A stretch of DNA of 25,251 nucleotides. It comes from a virus. Positions 7,183 through 23,568 of the stretch are shown in pieces (within the stretch, counting starts at the first letter, position 1; each line of letters begins with the position of its first letter). The notes under the pieces are model-generated. The model saw only the letters and a program-made list of their open reading frames with translations. It did no database searches and was not told the origin of the DNA. The stretch lies in IMG/VR virus record IMGVR_UViG_3300035698_028775. One strand, written 5' to 3'. Position numbers and translations under genes: made by a program.

Positions 7183-7210
7183 CCTATATAGTATTGGTTG
7201 TATATAACAC
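7183..7210 (-). promoter_or_regulatory. conserved inverted-repeat motif (copy 1), candidate promoter/5' leader element, ends 7 nt upstream of ATG 7176
   Basis: + strand CCTATATAGTATTGGTTGTATATAACAC; mRNA sense ...TTATATACAACCAATACTATATAGGTG-TTGT-ATG. Confidence 0.55.
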
Positions 7211-7388
7211 TACCGCCTTTTTTCTCCAAAAGCGTAGCGAAAATAAAAGGCCGCTAATCAGTCATTTTAGCTCGCCATACCCGGCATCTAATATCGCCAG
7301 AGATAGTAGTCAACCCGTACTACATATGATTTTGGATGATAGAGGACCATGCTCCCGCAGTACTGCAATTATCCGGGATTCCATTGCA

Positions 7389-8051
7389 TTATTCGACATT
7401 ATCAATTTCCTTTATCTTGATAATATGCTCTTTGATTCTTTCTTTACTTATCCGTAAATTACCATCCACATCAATTAGCATCTGTCTCTTTGCTTTAAAT
7501 CTATCAACTCTGAGACTATCATACTCCGCACCCATCTTCTTCAAAAATTCCTCTTCCGACATCTTATAATCCCCTCCGTTATCACCAATCATCTCACACA
7601 GATGAGGTCCAGATAATCTATATAACATGCCAGGATACAATTTACACGAAATTCTATCATCTGCCTTATTATATGGACAAGCTGAACATATTATATTTCT
7701 TTGTTCATAATCGTAATAAATTTTCCTCATTGAATCATACCAATCACCATACCATATCATTCCTTCCGGTGGAGGTGGCATATCATCGTCCATACTCAAA
7801 GTCCCACCAACAATATTATATGTGGCTTCAGGTGGATATTCCTCTGGTGGAATCACGCCGAATTTCTTTAATTCCATAACTAACTTTTGAGAAATATCTC
7901 CACCATTCATAACAGTTTTAGCAATAATCCCATCATTATCCATTAGCCTATCATCAGCCAAATCATGATTTAGACTCCACGTCATACCGCCAATTCCTTC
8001 TATACACATAAAATACTCCATAGGAGTTTCCGGCCACTTTTTTAATTCCAT
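7389..8051 (-). CDS. hypothetical protein (start refined to MELKKW)
   Basis: GGTGAATAT-ATG SD; upstream part of the track ORF is leader read-through. Confidence 0.5.
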   Translation of the reverse strand: MELKKWPETPMEYFMCIEGIGGMTWSLNHDLADDRLMDNDGIIAKTVMNGGDISQKLVMELKKFGVIPPEEYPPEATYNIVGGTLSMDDDMPPPPEGMIWYGDWYDSMRKIYYDYEQRNIICSACPYNKADDRISCKLYPGMLYRLSGPHLCEMIGDNGGDYKMSEEEFLKKMGAEYDSLRVDRFKAKRQMLIDVDGNLRISKERIKEHIIKIKEIDNVE

Positions 8052-8055
8052 ATAT

Positions 8056-8355
8056 TCACCTTTTAAAAAATATTTTTTCACATAAACGATATTTCCCCAT
8101 CCTGCAATCAGTGTCGCCCCTCTCAATCTGAGTAAACTTATAACATGGAGTTCCTTTAAACCATTTTTTATCATGTACCGAACATCTCGAAATATGACCA
8201 TCCCATATAAGGTGAGGACAATCCTCGCCAGAAGGTTTATGAATGATAAATTCCATCGATTCTTCTAAATCAATGTCCTCCCTATCAGATATCTCTGGCG
8301 ATATAATCATAACATCATACATCACACAACAATATCCACAGTTAAGACATTTCAT
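8056..8355 (-). CDS. CxxCxxCC (YkgJ/UPF0153-like) putative Fe-S/Zn-binding protein
   Basis: MKCLNCGYCCVMYD ... CPHL ... CSVH; start refined to internal ATG. Confidence 0.4.
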   Translation of the reverse strand: MKCLNCGYCCVMYDVMIISPEISDREDIDLEESMEFIIHKPSGEDCPHLIWDGHISRCSVHDKKWFKGTPCYKFTQIERGDTDCRMGKYRLCEKIFFKR

Positions 8356-8359
8356 AATG

Positions 8360-8572
8360 TCACCAAAGAAGTTTTGACAAATCAGGATATATCTTTTCAA
8401 ATTCGCTTTTATTACCACTAAAATCTAACGCCCCTGCCCATGTAACTTCAATTTCACCGTCCAAAAATACCGTAACCTCTACATCATCATCGCCATCTTT
8501 AAAAATATACTCATCAAATGACCTATCCAAACAGCCATGCATAAATCTGCCTTCTCCAATATATTTAACCAT
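8360..8572 (-). CDS. hypothetical small protein
   Basis: GGTGATAAT-ATG SD (MVKYIGEGR...). Confidence 0.35.
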   Translation of the reverse strand: MVKYIGEGRFMHGCLDRSFDEYIFKDGDDDVEVTVFLDGEIEVTWAGALDFSGNKSEFEKIYPDLSKLLW

Positions 8573-8582
8573 ATTATCACCA

Positions 8583-9074
8583 CTAACAAAATTCCGACCA
8601 AAAGTATAACTTGATATCGGGATTTCCAATATCTAATTTTTTGGCTAATTCCATAGCCTTCACCTTCAAATCTTCAAATCTATAAGTATCTTTCTTCAAA
8701 AATTTACCACTATCCTCACGTAGTTTCAAATCGTGATTAAATCTTCCAACGTCAAAACCAACAAGAATCTTCTCGTGATTTTCAATACTCTGCATCATAT
8801 TACATTCATACATTCTCTCAGAAAATTTCATAAAGTAAGGTTGAAATTGCCTTATTTTCTCTCCCTCATGAATAAAAAGTTCTCCGTTATGAAACACAAA
8901 TTCATCTCTTTCAGACAAAATCAGCTCTTTGCCAGTCATCCTAAAATATAAATCTTTGCACCTATCATCTATATCATCTTGTTCTGAATCCAAATTGATA
9001 TCATCGATTTCAAAGCCAACAATCATAAAATTAGTCGTACTGCTATTTGATATAAATCCTATCCGTTTCTTCAT
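8583..9074 (-). CDS. hypothetical protein, N-terminal GF[IV]SNSS motif family (paralog of 10802..11152)
   Basis: MKKRIGFISNSSTTNFMIVG versus MKIRKGFVSNSSSSSFLIIG. Confidence 0.5.
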   Translation of the reverse strand: MKKRIGFISNSSTTNFMIVGFEIDDINLDSEQDDIDDRCKDLYFRMTGKELILSERDEFVFHNGELFIHEGEKIRQFQPYFMKFSERMYECNMMQSIENHEKILVGFDVGRFNHDLKLREDSGKFLKKDTYRFEDLKVKAMELAKKLDIGNPDIKLYFWSEFC

Positions 9075-9079
9075 TTAAA

Positions 9080-21494: not shown

Positions 21495-21513
21495 TTTAAT
21501 CCACCTTTATAAT

Positions 21514-21542
21514 ACCTATATATCATTGGGTATATTTAACAC
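21514..21542 (-). promoter_or_regulatory. conserved inverted-repeat motif (copy 3)
   Basis: + strand ACCTATATATCATTGGGTATATTTAACAC; mRNA sense ...CCCAATGATATATAGGTATTATAAAGGTGGATTAAA-ATG. Confidence 0.5.
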
Positions 21543-21589
21543 TTTTTCCTTTTTCTCCCTCTTTCTTGGTCTTAATTTGGGTCATTAGA

Positions 21590-22645
21590 TTATACATCGT
21601 CAATTGTATTTATTGGGTCATGCGAAGATTTCTTTGTTAGTATCCATCCTTCGCCGAATAGTCGTTCAAATTCACTCATTAAACAGTCAAATGCCTCTTT
21701 TTTATATTCAAATTGGTGCGTTGGTTTTCCTTTCTTGCACATTAAATTCTTTCCAGTGCCGTCACGTGAATACATTGAAAAAGAATAAATATCTTTTTTT
21801 GCCCGTTGTTCAACCTCTAATGATATATATTCCGTATGTTTTGGCTGTCCACTCGGACTATGACCACTTTCATCAACCCATTCGTCTTTTTCAGGGTCAT
21901 AAACCTCATGCCCAAGTCTTGATATCTCAAGGTAGCCATAGTAATGAACCGCACCAATAGATGAACCTGCCCAAGAATCAACTCTTCCTGAAACTTGTCT
22001 GGGATTGTCTGGATATTTTGTTCTTCCTTTAGATGGCTCGTTATTCCATTCCCGATACTTAACTACAAATTCTTCTCCCGCTCCGAAATCTACAGGAATC
22101 TTTTCAGTAATATCCATTGACTTCTTCCAATCCAACTGCTCAGCCAGTGTTTGTTTTCTTATGTGAAAAACATATTCATCATCGTTACCGATTCCTTTTA
22201 TCGCTCTCTCACAGTTCAAAGCAACATCAAACTCACCTTTTTCTAACCAATCGAATATCGGTGATGTATCAATATGCCAATGTTTTTCCAATCCCACATA
22301 TAACACCTCACAGCCACACATTATTGCTCGTTTGATGGCTTGGTGTATATACTCACCCCTGTTTGGACGACACATGAAAACAATAGAGCCTTCAGGATAA
22401 TCAAATGTAGTACAATCTTTGTATATTATTGGCGGTCCTATTGGATATAACGGAATATCTTGCCCCTCCTCTAATTCTACACCAACCACATCATATCCTT
22501 TTTCAAATAGTGCTTCCACAAAGTTGCCATTACCACAACCAGCATCAAATATTGGTTTCTTTTCATCGTTAAATTTTTCAAACCATTCCCAAAACTTCTC
22601 ATTCGGTTCAAAAAATGTCGGTTTCACATATCCATTATCTGTCAT
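21590..22645 (-). CDS. class I SAM-dependent methyltransferase with C-terminal domain of unknown function (start refined to MTDNGYVKP)
   Basis: Motif I IFDAGCGNGNFVEALFEKGYDVVGVE; no (D/N)PP(Y/F) motif, so not an obvious DNA amino-MTase; the track ORF's extra N-terminus is translated promoter motif plus SD. Confidence 0.65.
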   Translation of the reverse strand: MTDNGYVKPTFFEPNEKFWEWFEKFNDEKKPIFDAGCGNGNFVEALFEKGYDVVGVELEEGQDIPLYPIGPPIIYKDCTTFDYPEGSIVFMCRPNRGEYIHQAIKRAIMCGCEVLYVGLEKHWHIDTSPIFDWLEKGEFDVALNCERAIKGIGNDDEYVFHIRKQTLAEQLDWKKSMDITEKIPVDFGAGEEFVVKYREWNNEPSKGRTKYPDNPRQVSGRVDSWAGSSIGAVHYYGYLEISRLGHEVYDPEKDEWVDESGHSPSGQPKHTEYISLEVEQRAKKDIYSFSMYSRDGTGKNLMCKKGKPTHQFEYKKEAFDCLMSEFERLFGEGWILTKKSSHDPINTIDDV

Positions 22646-22663
22646 TATATCACCTTTACAATA

Positions 22664-22690
22664 CCTATATATTGTTGGGAGTATATATAG
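22664..22690 (-). promoter_or_regulatory. conserved inverted-repeat motif (copy 4)
   Basis: + strand ACCTATATATTGTTGGGAGTATATATAG; mRNA sense ...TATATACTCCCAACAATATATAGGTATTGTAAAGGTGATATA-ATG. Confidence 0.55.
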
Positions 22691-22901
22691 TTTTTCTAAT
22701 AATCGGGTTTTTCCTCGTTTTATCCATTGCATTATATTTGTCGGTTCCATGTTATCATATCCTATACCTTTTTACCGAATGTACTCTCCTGAGCCACCGA
22801 AAAATCAAATCGCCTTTGTGCATATTGACATCTCGAATGTATTCCCAAATGTATTGCTCTCCTGAACCACGGAAAAATAAATTTTCCACACCATTTACAT
22901 T

Positions 22902-23537
22902 TTAACAATTTATCTCCTTCTTCACTTTATAATTTTCAGCCTCCCAAGCCGTATCCCACTCCCTCTCCGCCATGTGAATTACAAAATGCTTATCAGTAGC
23001 AGTTTGCATATACTCCTTGGTAATCTTCTCTATCTTTACAATACCATGCAGCGTAGATGGATATCCGTCCCTCGCCACCAAATCACCCAACTTGTAAGTA
23101 TCAAACTTTACATTACCAGTGCCGTCATAAATATATGCTGTTGTTGGCTGTCCGTCAACTTCCCTGCCAACACAATATGTAAAACCATCACCCTCCTTCG
23201 CACTGACGATTTTCAGAGGAGCAGGCATCTCCACCACATCCTCCATCACCTTCACCTCTTCCTCAATAAAAACAACTATCAAATCTTCAGGATTAATGCC
23301 GCCAAGTAGAGGTCTATCCACATCCGAATAATTATTCCAGCTATTTCCAGTACGCTGTAACGTACTCATAACCGATAAAATAGATTTTGCCTTATAAATA
23401 ACAGGATTATCAGGATAATCCTCCAAACTGTATTCTTCCTCATCATCGTAGTGCTCTAACTCAACTCGAAGCAGATTCCCCGACTTTTTCGACTTCAAAG
23501 CAAAATACCTCTCAGTACGACTCGTTTCTTTTACCAT
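22902..23537 (-). CDS. hypothetical protein
   Basis: Preceded by motif copy 5. Confidence 0.5.
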   Translation of the reverse strand: MVKETSRTERYFALKSKKSGNLLRVELEHYDDEEEYSLEDYPDNPVIYKAKSILSVMSTLQRTGNSWNNYSDVDRPLLGGINPEDLIVVFIEEEVKVMEDVVEMPAPLKIVSAKEGDGFTYCVGREVDGQPTTAYIYDGTGNVKFDTYKLGDLVARDGYPSTLHGIVKIEKITKEYMQTATDKHFVIHMAEREWDTAWEAENYKVKKEINC

Positions 23538-23541
23538 GTTC

Positions 23542-23568
23542 CCTATATACTATTGGGAGTATATAAAG
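23542..23568 (-). promoter_or_regulatory. conserved inverted-repeat motif (copy 5)
   Basis: + strand CCTATATACTATTGGGAGTATATAAAG; mRNA sense TTTATATACTCCCAATAGTATATAGGGAAC-ATG. Confidence 0.55.

Follow-up and report, generated by a model that had tools for sequence, protein, structure and literature searches.

A motif of ~30 bases that recurs in a large virus, uncultivated and originating from Ace Lake (Antarctica), most likely marks promoters of this virus. The layout of the motif is most likely that of an archaeal BRE/TATA promoter with two virus-specific blocks, an arrangement that fits better than a T7-type promoter, a sigma-70-type promoter or an RNA hairpin. Judged from the sequence, a TBP/TFB-type core promoter combined with virus-specific regulatory blocks is the best reading, with a probability that we put at about even. 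This best-fitting option was absent from those listed in the initial annotation.

Identification of the motif

The window (the entire analyzed stretch of 25,251 nucleotides) contains six gene-sense copies with the consensus AAAnT-TWTAWATA-C-nCCCAAT-NN-TATATAGG, five of which are strong and one, at 16016, degenerate. A pattern search of the window that allowed up to two mismatches returned 6 matches (0.15 expected by chance), a number that was reached in 0 of 100 shuffles. The weight-matrix scan of the window also gave 6 matches, all on the minus strand, with scores of 30.9–45.5 bits, which are partly circular as absolute values because the matrix was built including these six copies. The range between 8 and 30 bits was empty, and the top score over 20 shuffles was 8.6. 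The octamer TATATAGG occurs six times on the gene strand, exclusively within motif copies, and is absent from the opposite strand. The copies are as follows, with 30-nt spans that take in the upstream A-rich part:

7183..7212, minus strand: motif copy 1, class A (36.2 bits)
10752..10781, minus strand: motif copy 2, class A (42.6 bits)
16016..16045, minus strand: degenerate full-length copy, TTTAAATA-GA-TTCAAT-CT-TATATAGG (30.9 bits)
21515..21544, minus strand: motif copy 3, class A, with left box TTAAATAT (39.0 bits)
22664..22693, minus strand: motif copy 4, class B (41.5 bits)
23542..23571, minus strand: motif copy 5, class B, consensus-like, AAAC-TTTATATA-C-TCCCAAT-AG-TATATAGG (45.5 bits)

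The five near-identical copies lie on the minus (gene) strand at the positions given in the initial annotation. The "half-copy" that had been placed at 16015..16040 does exist, but it is the full-length degenerate copy at 16016–16045; the one at 17050..17070 contains no motif copy and only resembles the class A upstream box. The motif searches of the window, a check of the kind that had been suggested, found that the motif is not scattered in coding sequence: all six window copies are intergenic, as are all copies in the Ace Lake contigs described below.

Two sub-classes of the motif differ in their upstream sequence, with GGAGAAAAAGG in class A and an A-rich flank in class B:

7217..7227, minus strand: class A upstream box GGAGAAAAAAG(G), 8 nt upstream of the left TATA-like box
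10785..10795, minus strand: class A upstream box GGAGAAAAAGG
21548..21558, minus strand: class A upstream box GGAGAAAAAGG
22691..22702, minus strand: class B upstream flank TTATTAGAAAAA(C)
23568..23579, minus strand: class B upstream flank TTATTAGAAAAC, A-rich, at the position expected for a BRE

The previously reported flank common to copies 4 and 5 (TTATTAGAAAAC in gene sense) is present in both, with a 1-nt indel. Class B would possess an optimal A-rich BRE; in class A, the box is weaker, and GGAGAAAAAGG, located 8–9 nt upstream of it, may serve as a site for an activator.

Conservation and orientation of the motif

Approximately 14 more copies are present in diverged Ace Lake contigs with unrelated flanks, and the window proteins have very few homologues in these motif-bearing relatives. 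In the resulting set of 20 non-redundant copies (from the window and L001, L005, L018, L023, L031, L053 and L054), every copy is co-oriented with the next gene, and on L023 this is so for either strand. Several of the copies take up the whole intergenic gap of 41–47 nt, so a separate promoter would have no space. The intergenic, co-oriented placement in diverged contigs with unrelated flanks indicates a selected, directional, gene-proximal signal. These properties bear out the earlier proposal of an element-specific promoter and support a promoter-like signal, specific to this element, that would mark the starts of transcription units.

Columns T7, A8, C17, A18 and T25–G30 are invariant among the 20 copies, TATAGG being present in 20/20. 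Column A2, located 3 nt upstream of the 8-mer T5–A12, is at least 90% conserved, and column 9 is either T or A.

The motif contains an imperfect inverted repeat, TATATA(C)-N8-(G)TATATA, single copies of which fold with energies of −5 to −9 kcal/mol. Together with the closeness to start codons, at times merged with the SD, and the nearby genes for small winged-helix proteins, this would agree with a motif that is not a promoter: a dimeric regulator may use it as operator, or it may act at the RNA level, within read-through transcripts, as leader hairpin, processing site or translation signal. We regard this as unlikely. The repeat had been described as 7 bp long; it is present, but its seventh pair (C/G) is found in half of the 20 copies, and the unequal constraints on the two arms and the asymmetric CCCAAT core argue against a symmetric site. 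The RNA leader hairpin of the initial annotation is not supported, as compensatory change is absent across the 20 copies: the central pair is broken in 7/20 (left arm TATATA/TAAATA) without a compensating change, the closing pair is unpaired in 10/20, and the covariation score does not exceed that of slid controls. An Rfam search gave no match, and the strict co-orientation with genes and the one-sided A-rich extension point to a directional DNA signal. An operator role would fit alongside an archaeal-type promoter but is no substitute for it.

Position of the motif relative to gene starts

The distance from the final GG of the motif to the start codon is 4–25 nt, which corrects the earlier figure of 7–30 nt. 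For copy 5, the ATG of the gene at 22902-23537, which lacks an SD, is located 4 nt after the GG and 22 nt after the TATA-like box. For copy 1, the ATG of the kinase gene at 6553-7176 follows the GG by 6 nt, and the AGG of the motif continues into AGGTG. The degenerate copy at 16016 adjoins the SD GGAGGTGAT of the gene at 15606-16004 and overlaps the end of the upstream ORF. Copy 2 is upstream of a 35-aa ORF (10619-10726) and the CoaD-HD gene at 9379-10569, and copy 3 is upstream of the gene at 21117-21494 and a long, tightly packed run of co-oriented genes. Copy 4 is followed at 18 nt after its GG by ATG 22645 of a methyltransferase-like gene, and the SD AAAGGTGAT precedes this codon; ATG 22645 is favored over ATG 22750, in agreement with the idea that the motif locates true gene starts.

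The box-to-ATG distance is exactly 22 nt in two SD-less genes with no detectable homology to each other (22902-23537 of the window and 2785 of L001), and 24 nt for 6553-7176 of the window and 3997 of L054. The same geometry occurs in a putative promoter without the motif (TTTAAATA, 23 nt, ATG of L054 4193-5551), the gene of which also lacks an SD. The SD abuts or overlaps the GG in three copies (7183, 16016 and L001 5998). As for SD usage overall, GGTGA is found in 23/84 genes at a fixed spacing of 4–6 nt, and GGAGG in 5/84, which counts for the archaeal-type reading.

Proposed archaeal-type promoter architecture

We propose that the 5′ half of the motif is an archaeal-type core promoter, made up of an A-rich BRE, with an A at the third base before the box, and a TATA box of 8 bp that is of the methanogen type (TWTATATA, or a variant with TAAATA). 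Host TBP and TFB would recognize these elements. Initiation would be at a purine ~22–23 nt downstream of the box, or 4–5 nt past the invariant GG, and the second AT block TATATA (−12 to −7) would lie within the melting region (proximal promoter element). The predicted starts are:

23537, minus strand: copy 5, at the A of the ATG and the fifth nt after the GG (by the M. jannaschii TATA-to-TSS distance of 23 ± 2 nt)
22659, 21510, 16011, 10747/8 and 7178, minus strand: the other copies, by the same rule

The mRNA from copy 5 would thus be leaderless; by the rule, four genes would have mRNAs with no leader or almost none, and most others a short leader that contains an SD. In a hand count from the 20-copy alignment, a pyrimidine-purine step was present at the predicted start in 12/20 copies, more than at any other of the four offsets that were counted; offset 1–2 came second with 9/20.

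In M. jannaschii, the box TWTATATA is apparently limited to methanogens, the BRE comprises nine upstream positions, of which that 3 nt upstream of the box is highly conserved, and 94% of promoters have 23 ± 2 nt between box and TSS; the PPE (−11 to −2) is AT-rich, the start is T(−1)/purine(+1), and some other archaea have shorter 5′ UTRs (PMC2699501). The virus motif corresponds to this pattern in the sequence of its box and the A conserved 3 nt before it, in the spacing of 23 ± 2 nt, in AT-richness at −11/−10 and in the T/purine start. However, M. jannaschii cellular promoters hold a total of ~12 bits, and the stretch immediately after their box is not conserved, whereas the virus motif has a near-invariant CCCAAT and TATATAGG, and its GG breaks the AT-rich proximal region. 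TBP/TFB alone would require far less conservation between box and start than the motif shows, which counts against an archaeal promoter. So do the longer 5′ UTRs, since leaderless mRNA is no hallmark of that methanogen, and the SDs that abut or overlap the GG, which a start 5 nt after the GG would leave outside the transcript.

Those SDs would stay in the transcript if a single-subunit phage RNAP initiated at the first G of TATA|GG, as in a T7-class promoter; the invariance of TATAGG, expected if GG are the initiating nucleotides, and the near-continuous conservation over ~25 bp would also be explained. We nevertheless consider this highly unlikely. In T7 promoters the AT-rich block is at −17 to −13. 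The resemblance to T7-class promoters noted in the initial annotation extends to TATA followed by GG and to continuous conservation over >20 bp, but the AT-rich block here would lie ~7 bp further upstream (−24 to −17), positions −8/−7 are unconstrained, and the AT-rich and specificity regions are in a different register, with a dyad of TATA-like boxes. The A/T wobble of the left box and the upstream A-rich tract are also unlike T7, and four genes would have 6–8-nt leaders without an SD. No single-subunit RNAP (PF00940-type) was found in any available sequence of the virus group. The misfit to sigma-70 −35/−10 geometry stated earlier is confirmed.

Gene content and the host domain

Three NAD/PRPP genes of the virus group, one of them in the window, are archaeal-type by their sequence matches. 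The window gene at 3923-4438 encodes a stand-alone archaeal NMNAT (NF002243, 158.8 bits, above cut-off; TIGR01527 arch_NMN_Atrans, 152.9 bits), with MJ0541 as its best solved relative (123 bits); bacterial NadM-Nudix scores 39 bits, and no phage exceeds 72 bits. NadE of L053 has PRK13980 as best model and 2e18 as best structure, and all named proteins among its best 120 homologues are archaeal. PRPP synthase of L018 best matches the model PRK00934 and the structures 1u9y, 3lpn and 4twb, which we take to be archaeal entries. These genes would be consistent with an archaeal host. Against it stand two Peptidase_M23 proteins in the relatives, a CoaD of bacterial type (TIGR01510, above cut-off), MVP-like homologues of which every named one is bacterial, and a single canonical hairpin-plus-T8 terminator after the MVP gene. 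Huge phages LR756500 and LR756501 have homologues of the pair formed by the 92-aa protein and MVP genes, the CoaD-HD fusion and the kinase, and LR756504 (636 kb) matches another protein of the relatives; for the 735-kb huge-phage genome and others >634 kb, Bacteroidetes hosts are predicted, which also counts against an archaeal host.

It is possible, though doubtful, that the motif serves phage-encoded or phage-modified bacterial-type machinery (a jumbo-phage virion RNAP or a sigma-like factor) in a bacterial host. The distal TATATA would then be a −10-like element, initiation would occur 6 nt downstream of it, and the blocks further upstream would provide additional specificity contacts. The huge-phage-like gene content, with homologues and local synteny in LR756500, LR756501 and LR756504 and with M23 peptidase, CoaD, HNH, RNA ligase and PNK-like genes, would agree with this, as would the mostly bacterial hosts of metagenomic viruses. 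The early promoters of jumbo-phage vRNAPs (AR9, phiKZ group) are extended, highly conserved and AT-rich, with the start 6 nt downstream, the AR9 promoter being AAATATATATTAT-(6N)-G (PMC5312081, PMC7598289). The putatively leaderless pair in the window and L001 likewise reads TATATA-(6N)-A, and vRNAP promoters, like the motif, are lineage-specific and can be found bioinformatically upstream of operons. However, they consist of one AT-rich element of ~10–13 nt, whereas the motif spans ~30 bp and is bipartite, with two AT blocks and the GC-containing CCCAAT core, and its left half agrees with BRE/TATA grammar at each position. The archaeal-type NAD/PRPP genes argue in the same direction, and the huge-phage relatives lack SDs, whereas this lineage is strong on GGTGA, so the hosts differ. 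There is no enrichment of sigma-70-like promoters or intrinsic terminators, which counts for the archaeal-type reading; as regards host-type sigma-70 promoters, it would equally suit phage-specific machinery. Among the ~130 proteins scanned (~80 kb of a genome that may be far larger), no TBP, TFB, sigma or RNAP genes, including split beta/beta′ genes, were found, which counts against both readings.

Virus-specific blocks and comparison with archaeal viruses

Returning to the TBP/TFB-type promoter, CCCAAT (−20 to −15) and TATATAGG are conserved far above the level of cellular promoters, from which we infer a virus-specific regulator or specificity factor that would read them and define a temporal class. 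A candidate is encoded in the window:

24359..24580, minus strand: 73-aa winged-helix protein (ITSNEIASMLGISHAAVCVTMKKLRRRGEV), with Pfam wHTH matches from a pooled scan that were tied to this ORF by reading its sequence

A homologue with 31% identity is present in relatives L053 and L054.

The intergenic repeats of halovirus HF2 and other Haloferacalesvirus, of 58 bp (class I) and 29 bp (class II), are experimentally shown to carry promoters and combine BRE/TATA elements with conserved blocks found nowhere else in the genome (PMC8707807). Like the motif, they are short (~30–60 bp), confined to the space between genes, built of AT blocks split by C runs around a BRE/TATA core with further conserved blocks, of which HF2 needs the one around the start. 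Related viruses share their sequence and position, and they are located at the heads of long transcripts. The sequences are unrelated, and HF2 has a haloarchaeal host with another TATA pattern, in contrast to the methanogen-type box here. The HF2 repeats were tested experimentally, whereas the present motif is a predicted promoter with a putative archaeal host.

In SIRV2, a further precedent with experimental support, early genes carry virus-specific sequence around a near-identical BRE/TATA core; in archaeal viruses such flanking blocks differ by virus and are thought to be bound by virus-encoded regulators, e.g. the winged-helix Aca8 (PMC11065993). The virus motif likewise places a near-identical core inside a longer virus-specific consensus common to many genes of one genome, and a small winged-helix gene is also present in the window. 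SIRV2-type promoters belong to crenarchaeal viruses and precede small single genes, whereas the motif heads multi-gene units; a temporal class or anti-defense role here would be putative. The motif would represent a promoter cassette particular to this virus lineage, placed at the head of its transcription units.

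A repeated intergenic element in the window and its relatives

The window has a GC content of 33–41% per kb (~37% overall) with a strong GC skew, and all of its genes from ~1350 onward are carried by the minus strand. The five sites reported in the initial annotation share, in gene sense, the pattern TTATATAC-nnCCAAy-nn-TATATAGG, and they represent a real motif: a pattern search of the window found six sites against 0.15 expected, a number that none of the shuffled sequences reached. In a scan with a weight matrix of 20 copies, the six window sites scored 30.9–45.5 bits (the training set includes these six sites, so the absolute bit scores are partly circular), the range from 8 to 30 bits was empty, and 20 shuffles gave no score above 8.6 bits. 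The string TATATAGG is present on the gene strand at the six motif sites only and has zero occurrences on the other strand. The copies, named by their start in the window, are as follows (classes refer to the upstream flank):

7183 (−), class A copy
10752 (−), class A copy
16016 (−), degenerate full-length copy
21515 (−), class A copy
22664 (−), class B copy
23542 (−), class B copy

The site at 16016 had been described as a half-copy; it is indeed a copy, but a full-length one, though degenerate. A further half-copy proposed at 17050 was not a copy in the weight-matrix scan. All six copies are intergenic, and the five strong ones lie in 5 of the 12 window gaps of at least 25 nt. Iterons or a packaging site were rejected as explanations because the copies are dispersed, with one per operon head.

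A motif scan of metagenome contigs yielded contigs from four samples, and for one sample series, Ga0222679, the documented origin is Ace Lake (Antarctica). Two of the contigs (L025 and L033) are from the same virus as the window, and the other motif-bearing relatives are L001/L021, L005, L018, L019 + L028 (extended as L053, with the near-identical ENA contig L054), L023, and L031. Except for ~420 bp in L019, which are ~85% identical to window 3029–3611, the motif is the only DNA common to the window and these other relatives, and very few of their proteins match window proteins. The relatives contribute ~14 non-redundant copies, every one of which is intergenic and co-directed with the next gene, including those on both strands of L023; several nearly fill gaps of 41–47 nt. 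That a 30-nt block is retained amid diverged surroundings and keeps its orientation strictly speaks for a DNA signal that is directional, under selection, and placed at the head of transcription units.

Other collections gave little. A megablast comparison of the window with 50,697 phage records returned zero matches, IMG/VR gave nothing or single chance matches and no relative of the window when scanned twice with the motif and once with proteins, and a motif scan of GTDB genomes gave 16 single matches in unrelated taxa, which were taken as chance. Exact-protein look-ups of window genes found no record or only contigs of ≤4 kb, and tRNA and Rfam searches of the window and its relatives found none. 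Six contigs from other samples (L004, L007, L013, L020, L026, and L035), some of them presumably marine, were rejected as relatives, as they are copies of one unrelated sequence and count as one chance event. They have in common a conserved AT-rich region of ~100 nt with the 23-mer ATATACAACCAATGATATATAGG, preceded by TATATACTATATACTATA, and are unrelated to the window lineage.

Anatomy of the element

The alignment of the 20 copies (A3) has the consensus AAAnT-TWTAWATA-C-nCCCAAT-NN-TATATAGG-(T/G), in which an 8-bp TATA-like left box (columns 5–12) is followed by a CCCAAT core and by a second TATATA with GG. Columns T7, A8, C17, A18, and T25–G30 are invariant, and conservation is 90% or higher in columns A2, A10–A12, C16, A19, and A24. 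At column 9, 13 copies have T and 7 have A, and the two bases ahead of the second TATATA are unconstrained. Two classes differ in their upstream flank. In class A (7183, 10752, 21515, and the copy in L031), GGAGAAAAAGG lies 8–9 nt upstream of the left box, which starts with G or A in place of T; in class B (22664, 23542, and most relatives), the flank is rich in A and ends in AAAC(T). A conserved hairpin or terminator was also considered for the class A upstream box and rejected, as just one of four copies folds well.

Two further observations concern gaps between genes. An apparent intergenic gap is occupied by a small, Cys-rich, unlisted ORF (MKEKYIEYCGACCQHYNIHSGHICSEDWCGK...; 24247–24358, minus strand) preceded by GGGGAAAAAGG and a TATA-like stretch, an arrangement reminiscent of the upstream box of class A. 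Ahead of copy 22664 is a 256-nt gap that contains a 25-nt direct repeat (22784–22808 and 22857–22881; 88% identical, 73 nt apart) with a T5 run in each unit.

The distance from the GG to the gene start is 4, 4, 6, 6, 9, 9, 11, 13, 16, 16, 18, 18, 18, 20, 21, 22, 25, and 40 nt, and ~115 nt in two further copies. Where it is at least 9 nt, most genes have a ribosome-binding site (SD), usually of the GGTGA or GAGG type. At 4 nt neither gene has one, and of the two genes at 6 nt one lacks an SD, while at window copy 7183 the AGG of the motif runs into AGGTG.

Hairpin, sigma-70 and T7-class readings

The inverted repeat had been read as a possible RNA leader hairpin. The central pair is broken in 7 of the 20 copies with no compensation, the closing C–G pair is unpaired in 10 of 20, single copies fold weakly (−1.6 to −9.3 kcal/mol), and the covariation score over the 20 copies does not exceed that of slid-partner controls. 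A comparison with Rfam gave no family match for the motif. The lack of covariation indicates that the two arms are under different constraints, so a symmetric operator is also disfavored.

Sigma-70 promoters were scored as a TTGACA-like −35 and a TATAAT-like −10 element at a spacing of 16–18 bp, where the second base of the −10 element is A and its sixth is T. The poor fit to this geometry that was noted initially was borne out: in the window, L053, and L001, consensus-like promoters occur no more often than in shuffled sequence, and among the six window copies 10752 alone was flagged, with a borderline 9-of-12 match (TGGAGA-17-TATACT). The TATATA of the motif is without the final T of a −10 element. 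Class A copies have TTGGAG 16–17 bp ahead of the left box, a weak partial fit, and class B copies have no TTG-like −35 at either box.

T7-class promoters have a consensus spanning −17 to +6, with an AT-rich stretch at −17 to −13, specificity bases at −12 to −7, TATA at −4 to −1, and G at +1. The suggested likeness of the motif to this class is confined to TATA/GG, and its AT-rich block is 7 bp too far upstream; in T7 register this block occupies −24 to −17, and positions −8/−7 are free. No single-subunit RNAP gene was found in the window or in ~55 kb of relatives, which represent an incomplete genome, and no RNAP, sigma factor, TBP, or TFB was found among ~130 scanned proteins. Of the initial proposals, that of a promoter stands, and those of a T7-type element and of a hairpin do not.

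Comparison with archaeal core promoters

Promoters of M. jannaschii contain a TWTATATA box, of a type described as restricted to methanogens, which is preceded by a BRE of nine positions, of which the one 3 nt ahead of the box is highly conserved; 94% of the promoters have their start 23 ± 2 nt past the 3′ edge of the box, the proximal element from −11 to −2 is AT-rich with −11 and −10 most conserved, and the start has T at −1 and a purine at +1 (PMC2699501). The left half of the motif follows this grammar position for position. A3 columns 5–12 read T-W-T-A-W-A-T-A, in agreement with an 8-bp TATA box (TTTAWATA/TWTATATA), and at least 90% of the 20 copies have A at column 2, 3 nt before the box, with A-rich sequence further upstream. 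A point 22–23 nt past the left box is 4–5 nt past the GG, and the second TATATA lies at −12 to −7 relative to this predicted start. For the window gene 22902–23537 and the gene at L001 2785, which have no detectable homology to each other and no SD, the predicted start is the A of the ATG, 22 nt past the box. For window 6553–7176 and L054 3997 the ATG is 2 nt further on, 24 nt past the box. A divergent gene, L054 4193–5551, has a motif-less promoter in which TTTAAATA is followed by 23 nt and then the ATG, also without an SD. A pyrimidine–purine step is found at the predicted start in 12 of 20 copies, more than at any other of the four offsets counted, and in 9 of 20 at offset 1–2.

If the host is bacterial, the main rival is a promoter of the jumbo-phage virion RNAP (vRNAP) type. 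Early promoters of this kind have a conserved AT-rich stretch of ~10–13 nt near −10 and a start 6 nt downstream (PMC5312081, PMC7598289), and the TATATA-(6N)-A(TG) geometry of the two genes predicted to be leaderless resembles this arrangement. However, the motif is longer and bipartite, as opposed to a single block of ~10–13 nt, and split beta/beta′-like vRNAP genes were not found in the sequence examined, which is an incomplete genome.

Elements of comparable organization are known from archaeal viruses. Between genes of the halovirus HF2 lie repeats of 29 and 58 bp that are absent from the rest of its genome. They are built of AT blocks with C runs in between and are kept throughout the genus, and reporter assays, primer extension, and scanning mutagenesis demonstrated that they are BRE/TATA promoters with an additional conserved block around the start that is essential (PMC8707807). 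The window motif is likewise intergenic only, absent elsewhere in the available sequence, and kept among related viruses. The early genes of SIRV2, and of many other viruses of archaea, have in common a virus-specific sequence around a near-identical BRE/TATA core, and the flanking parts are believed to be bound by viral regulators, for example the winged-helix protein Aca8 (PMC11065993). The window motif may be likened to both; a small winged-helix gene is present in the window (24359–24580), with a homologue in L053 and L054.

Taken as a whole, the motif is very probably a promoter. Its left half would be a BRE/TATA core bound by host TBP/TFB and giving rise to leaderless or short-leader mRNAs. 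Such a core without an extra factor leaves unexplained why CCCAAT and GG are nearly invariant, which, by analogy with the HF2 and SIRV2-type elements, may be due to a virus-specific factor. We give an even chance to the predicted combination of an archaeal-type core promoter with virus-specific regulatory blocks and leaderless or short-leader mRNAs. It is improbable that the whole element, including CCCAAT and TATATAGG, is read by a virus-encoded initiation factor or polymerase, with or without TBP/TFB, and that the virus is a large one of archaea, with gene modules in common with huge phages of the Mahaphage type. According to a passage in PMC5569661, viruses of archaea have no RNAP genes of their own, so a virus-specific transcription system, or a huge-phage relative infecting a methanogen-like archaeon, would be the first of its kind.

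Neighboring genes

Several features of the window and its relatives were recorded alongside the motif:

7177–7388 (−), winged-helix-like ORF (MESRIIAVLREHGPLSSKIICSTG) broken by an in-frame TGA, in the 212-nt gap upstream of copy 7183; possibly the remnant of a decayed gene, or else an instance of recoding
10802–11179, 8583–9074, and L001 ~7736, ORFs that begin with the same N-terminal MK(I/K)R.GF(V/I)SNSS(S/T) and are otherwise unrelated; may be a paralogous family
11309–11328 (−), hairpin followed by a T8 run (AAGGGAGCTTATGCTCCCTT TATTTTTTTT) right after the major-vault-protein (MVP) gene; no other strong terminator-like site is present in the window, and the gene that follows lacks a motif copy
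11330–13672 (−), 780-aa MVP homologue (MVP shoulder domain, 6.6e-29)
13672–13950 (−), 92-aa gene directly ahead of the MVP gene
23597–23860 (−), identical to L059 1123–1386, 87 aa; PF26761 (Acb5) in a precomputed annotation, a family that a Pfam scan of the same ORF did not return
24866–25251 (−), continued in L033 203–1528, TnpB-type gene (OrfB_IS605 / Cas12f-like TNB) running off the window end
L001 8066–9664 (+), radical SAM/SPASM protein split by an intein (Hint/intein-splicing domains)

The nearest plasmid relatives of the TnpB-type protein are IS607-associated TnpB proteins of diverse bacteria (40–45% identity) and are not informative. The pair formed by the 92-aa gene and the MVP gene is also present in the huge phages LR756501 (735 kb) and LR756500 (462 kb), and in LR756500 homologues of the CoaD-HD fusion and the kinase of the window are located near it. 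The NMN adenylyltransferase of the window, NadE of L053, and PRPP synthase of L018 make up an archaeal-type NAD/PRPP gene set of the lineage.

Host affiliation

Several features favor an archaeal host. The window gene 3923–4438 (−) encodes a stand-alone archaeal-type NMN adenylyltransferase, which matches NF002243 with 158.8 bits, a score above cut-off, and TIGR01527 (arch_NMN_Atrans) with 152.9 bits. Among solved structures the closest is MJ0541 of M. jannaschii (123 bits over the full length), as against 39 bits for bacterial NadM-Nudix and 72 bits for the best phage match. The named homologues among the top 120 for NadE of L053 are all archaeal; the best fits of this protein are PRK13980 and 2e18, with phage NadE proteins at a greater distance. 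The PRPP synthase of L018 fits PRK00934, 1u9y, 3lpn, and 4twb ahead of bacterial and human enzymes. The entries fitted by PRPP synthase are, like 2e18, presumably archaeal. A methyltransferase of L053 is closer to HemK2/Mtq2 than to PrmC, though below cut-off. Among 84 gene starts in the window and L053/L054, 23 have an SD of the form GGTGA(T) at a fixed distance of 4–6 nt and 5 have GGAGG; GGGGG precedes several other genes.

In favor of a bacterial host, a canonical terminator follows the MVP gene, the relatives encode two Peptidase_M23 proteins, CoaD is of bacterial type, and all named MVP homologues are bacterial. On the same side, homologues of the 92-aa protein and MVP pair, the CoaD-HD fusion, and the kinase are found in the huge phages LR756500 and LR756501, and a protein of one relative matches the huge phage LR756504. 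The 735-kb genome (the length of LR756501) and the others of >634 kb (LR756504 has 636 kb) have Bacteroidetes as predicted hosts. The corresponding loci of LR756500 and LR756501 (L061 and L062) have neither the motif nor SDs, and the lack of SDs implies that their hosts differ from that of the window lineage. A homologue search with CoaD-HD gave one weak match, and the contig of the best MVP homologue has a GC content of 48% and no motif. On balance, we lean toward an archaeal host.

Implications for the virus lineage

If the promoter assignment is true, the motif provides a ready map of transcription units in an uncultivated lineage in which almost all genes are of unknown function. It is also a search key, as one DNA pattern found at least five further contigs of the lineage in metagenomes and protein searches found almost none. 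The precedent of SIRV2 makes the genes that follow the strongest copies candidates for an early or anti-defense role. The main value of the element is as a marker of a poorly known lineage of large viruses and, through its promoter grammar, as a clue to their host. The lineage carries huge-phage-like modules (the MVP homologue, the CoaD-HD fusion, and RNA repair genes), and its archaeal-type NAD/PRPP genes and promoter grammar suggest that viruses with such modules may have their hosts among the archaea of Ace Lake's anoxic water, which is testable with existing metagenomes and metatranscriptomes.
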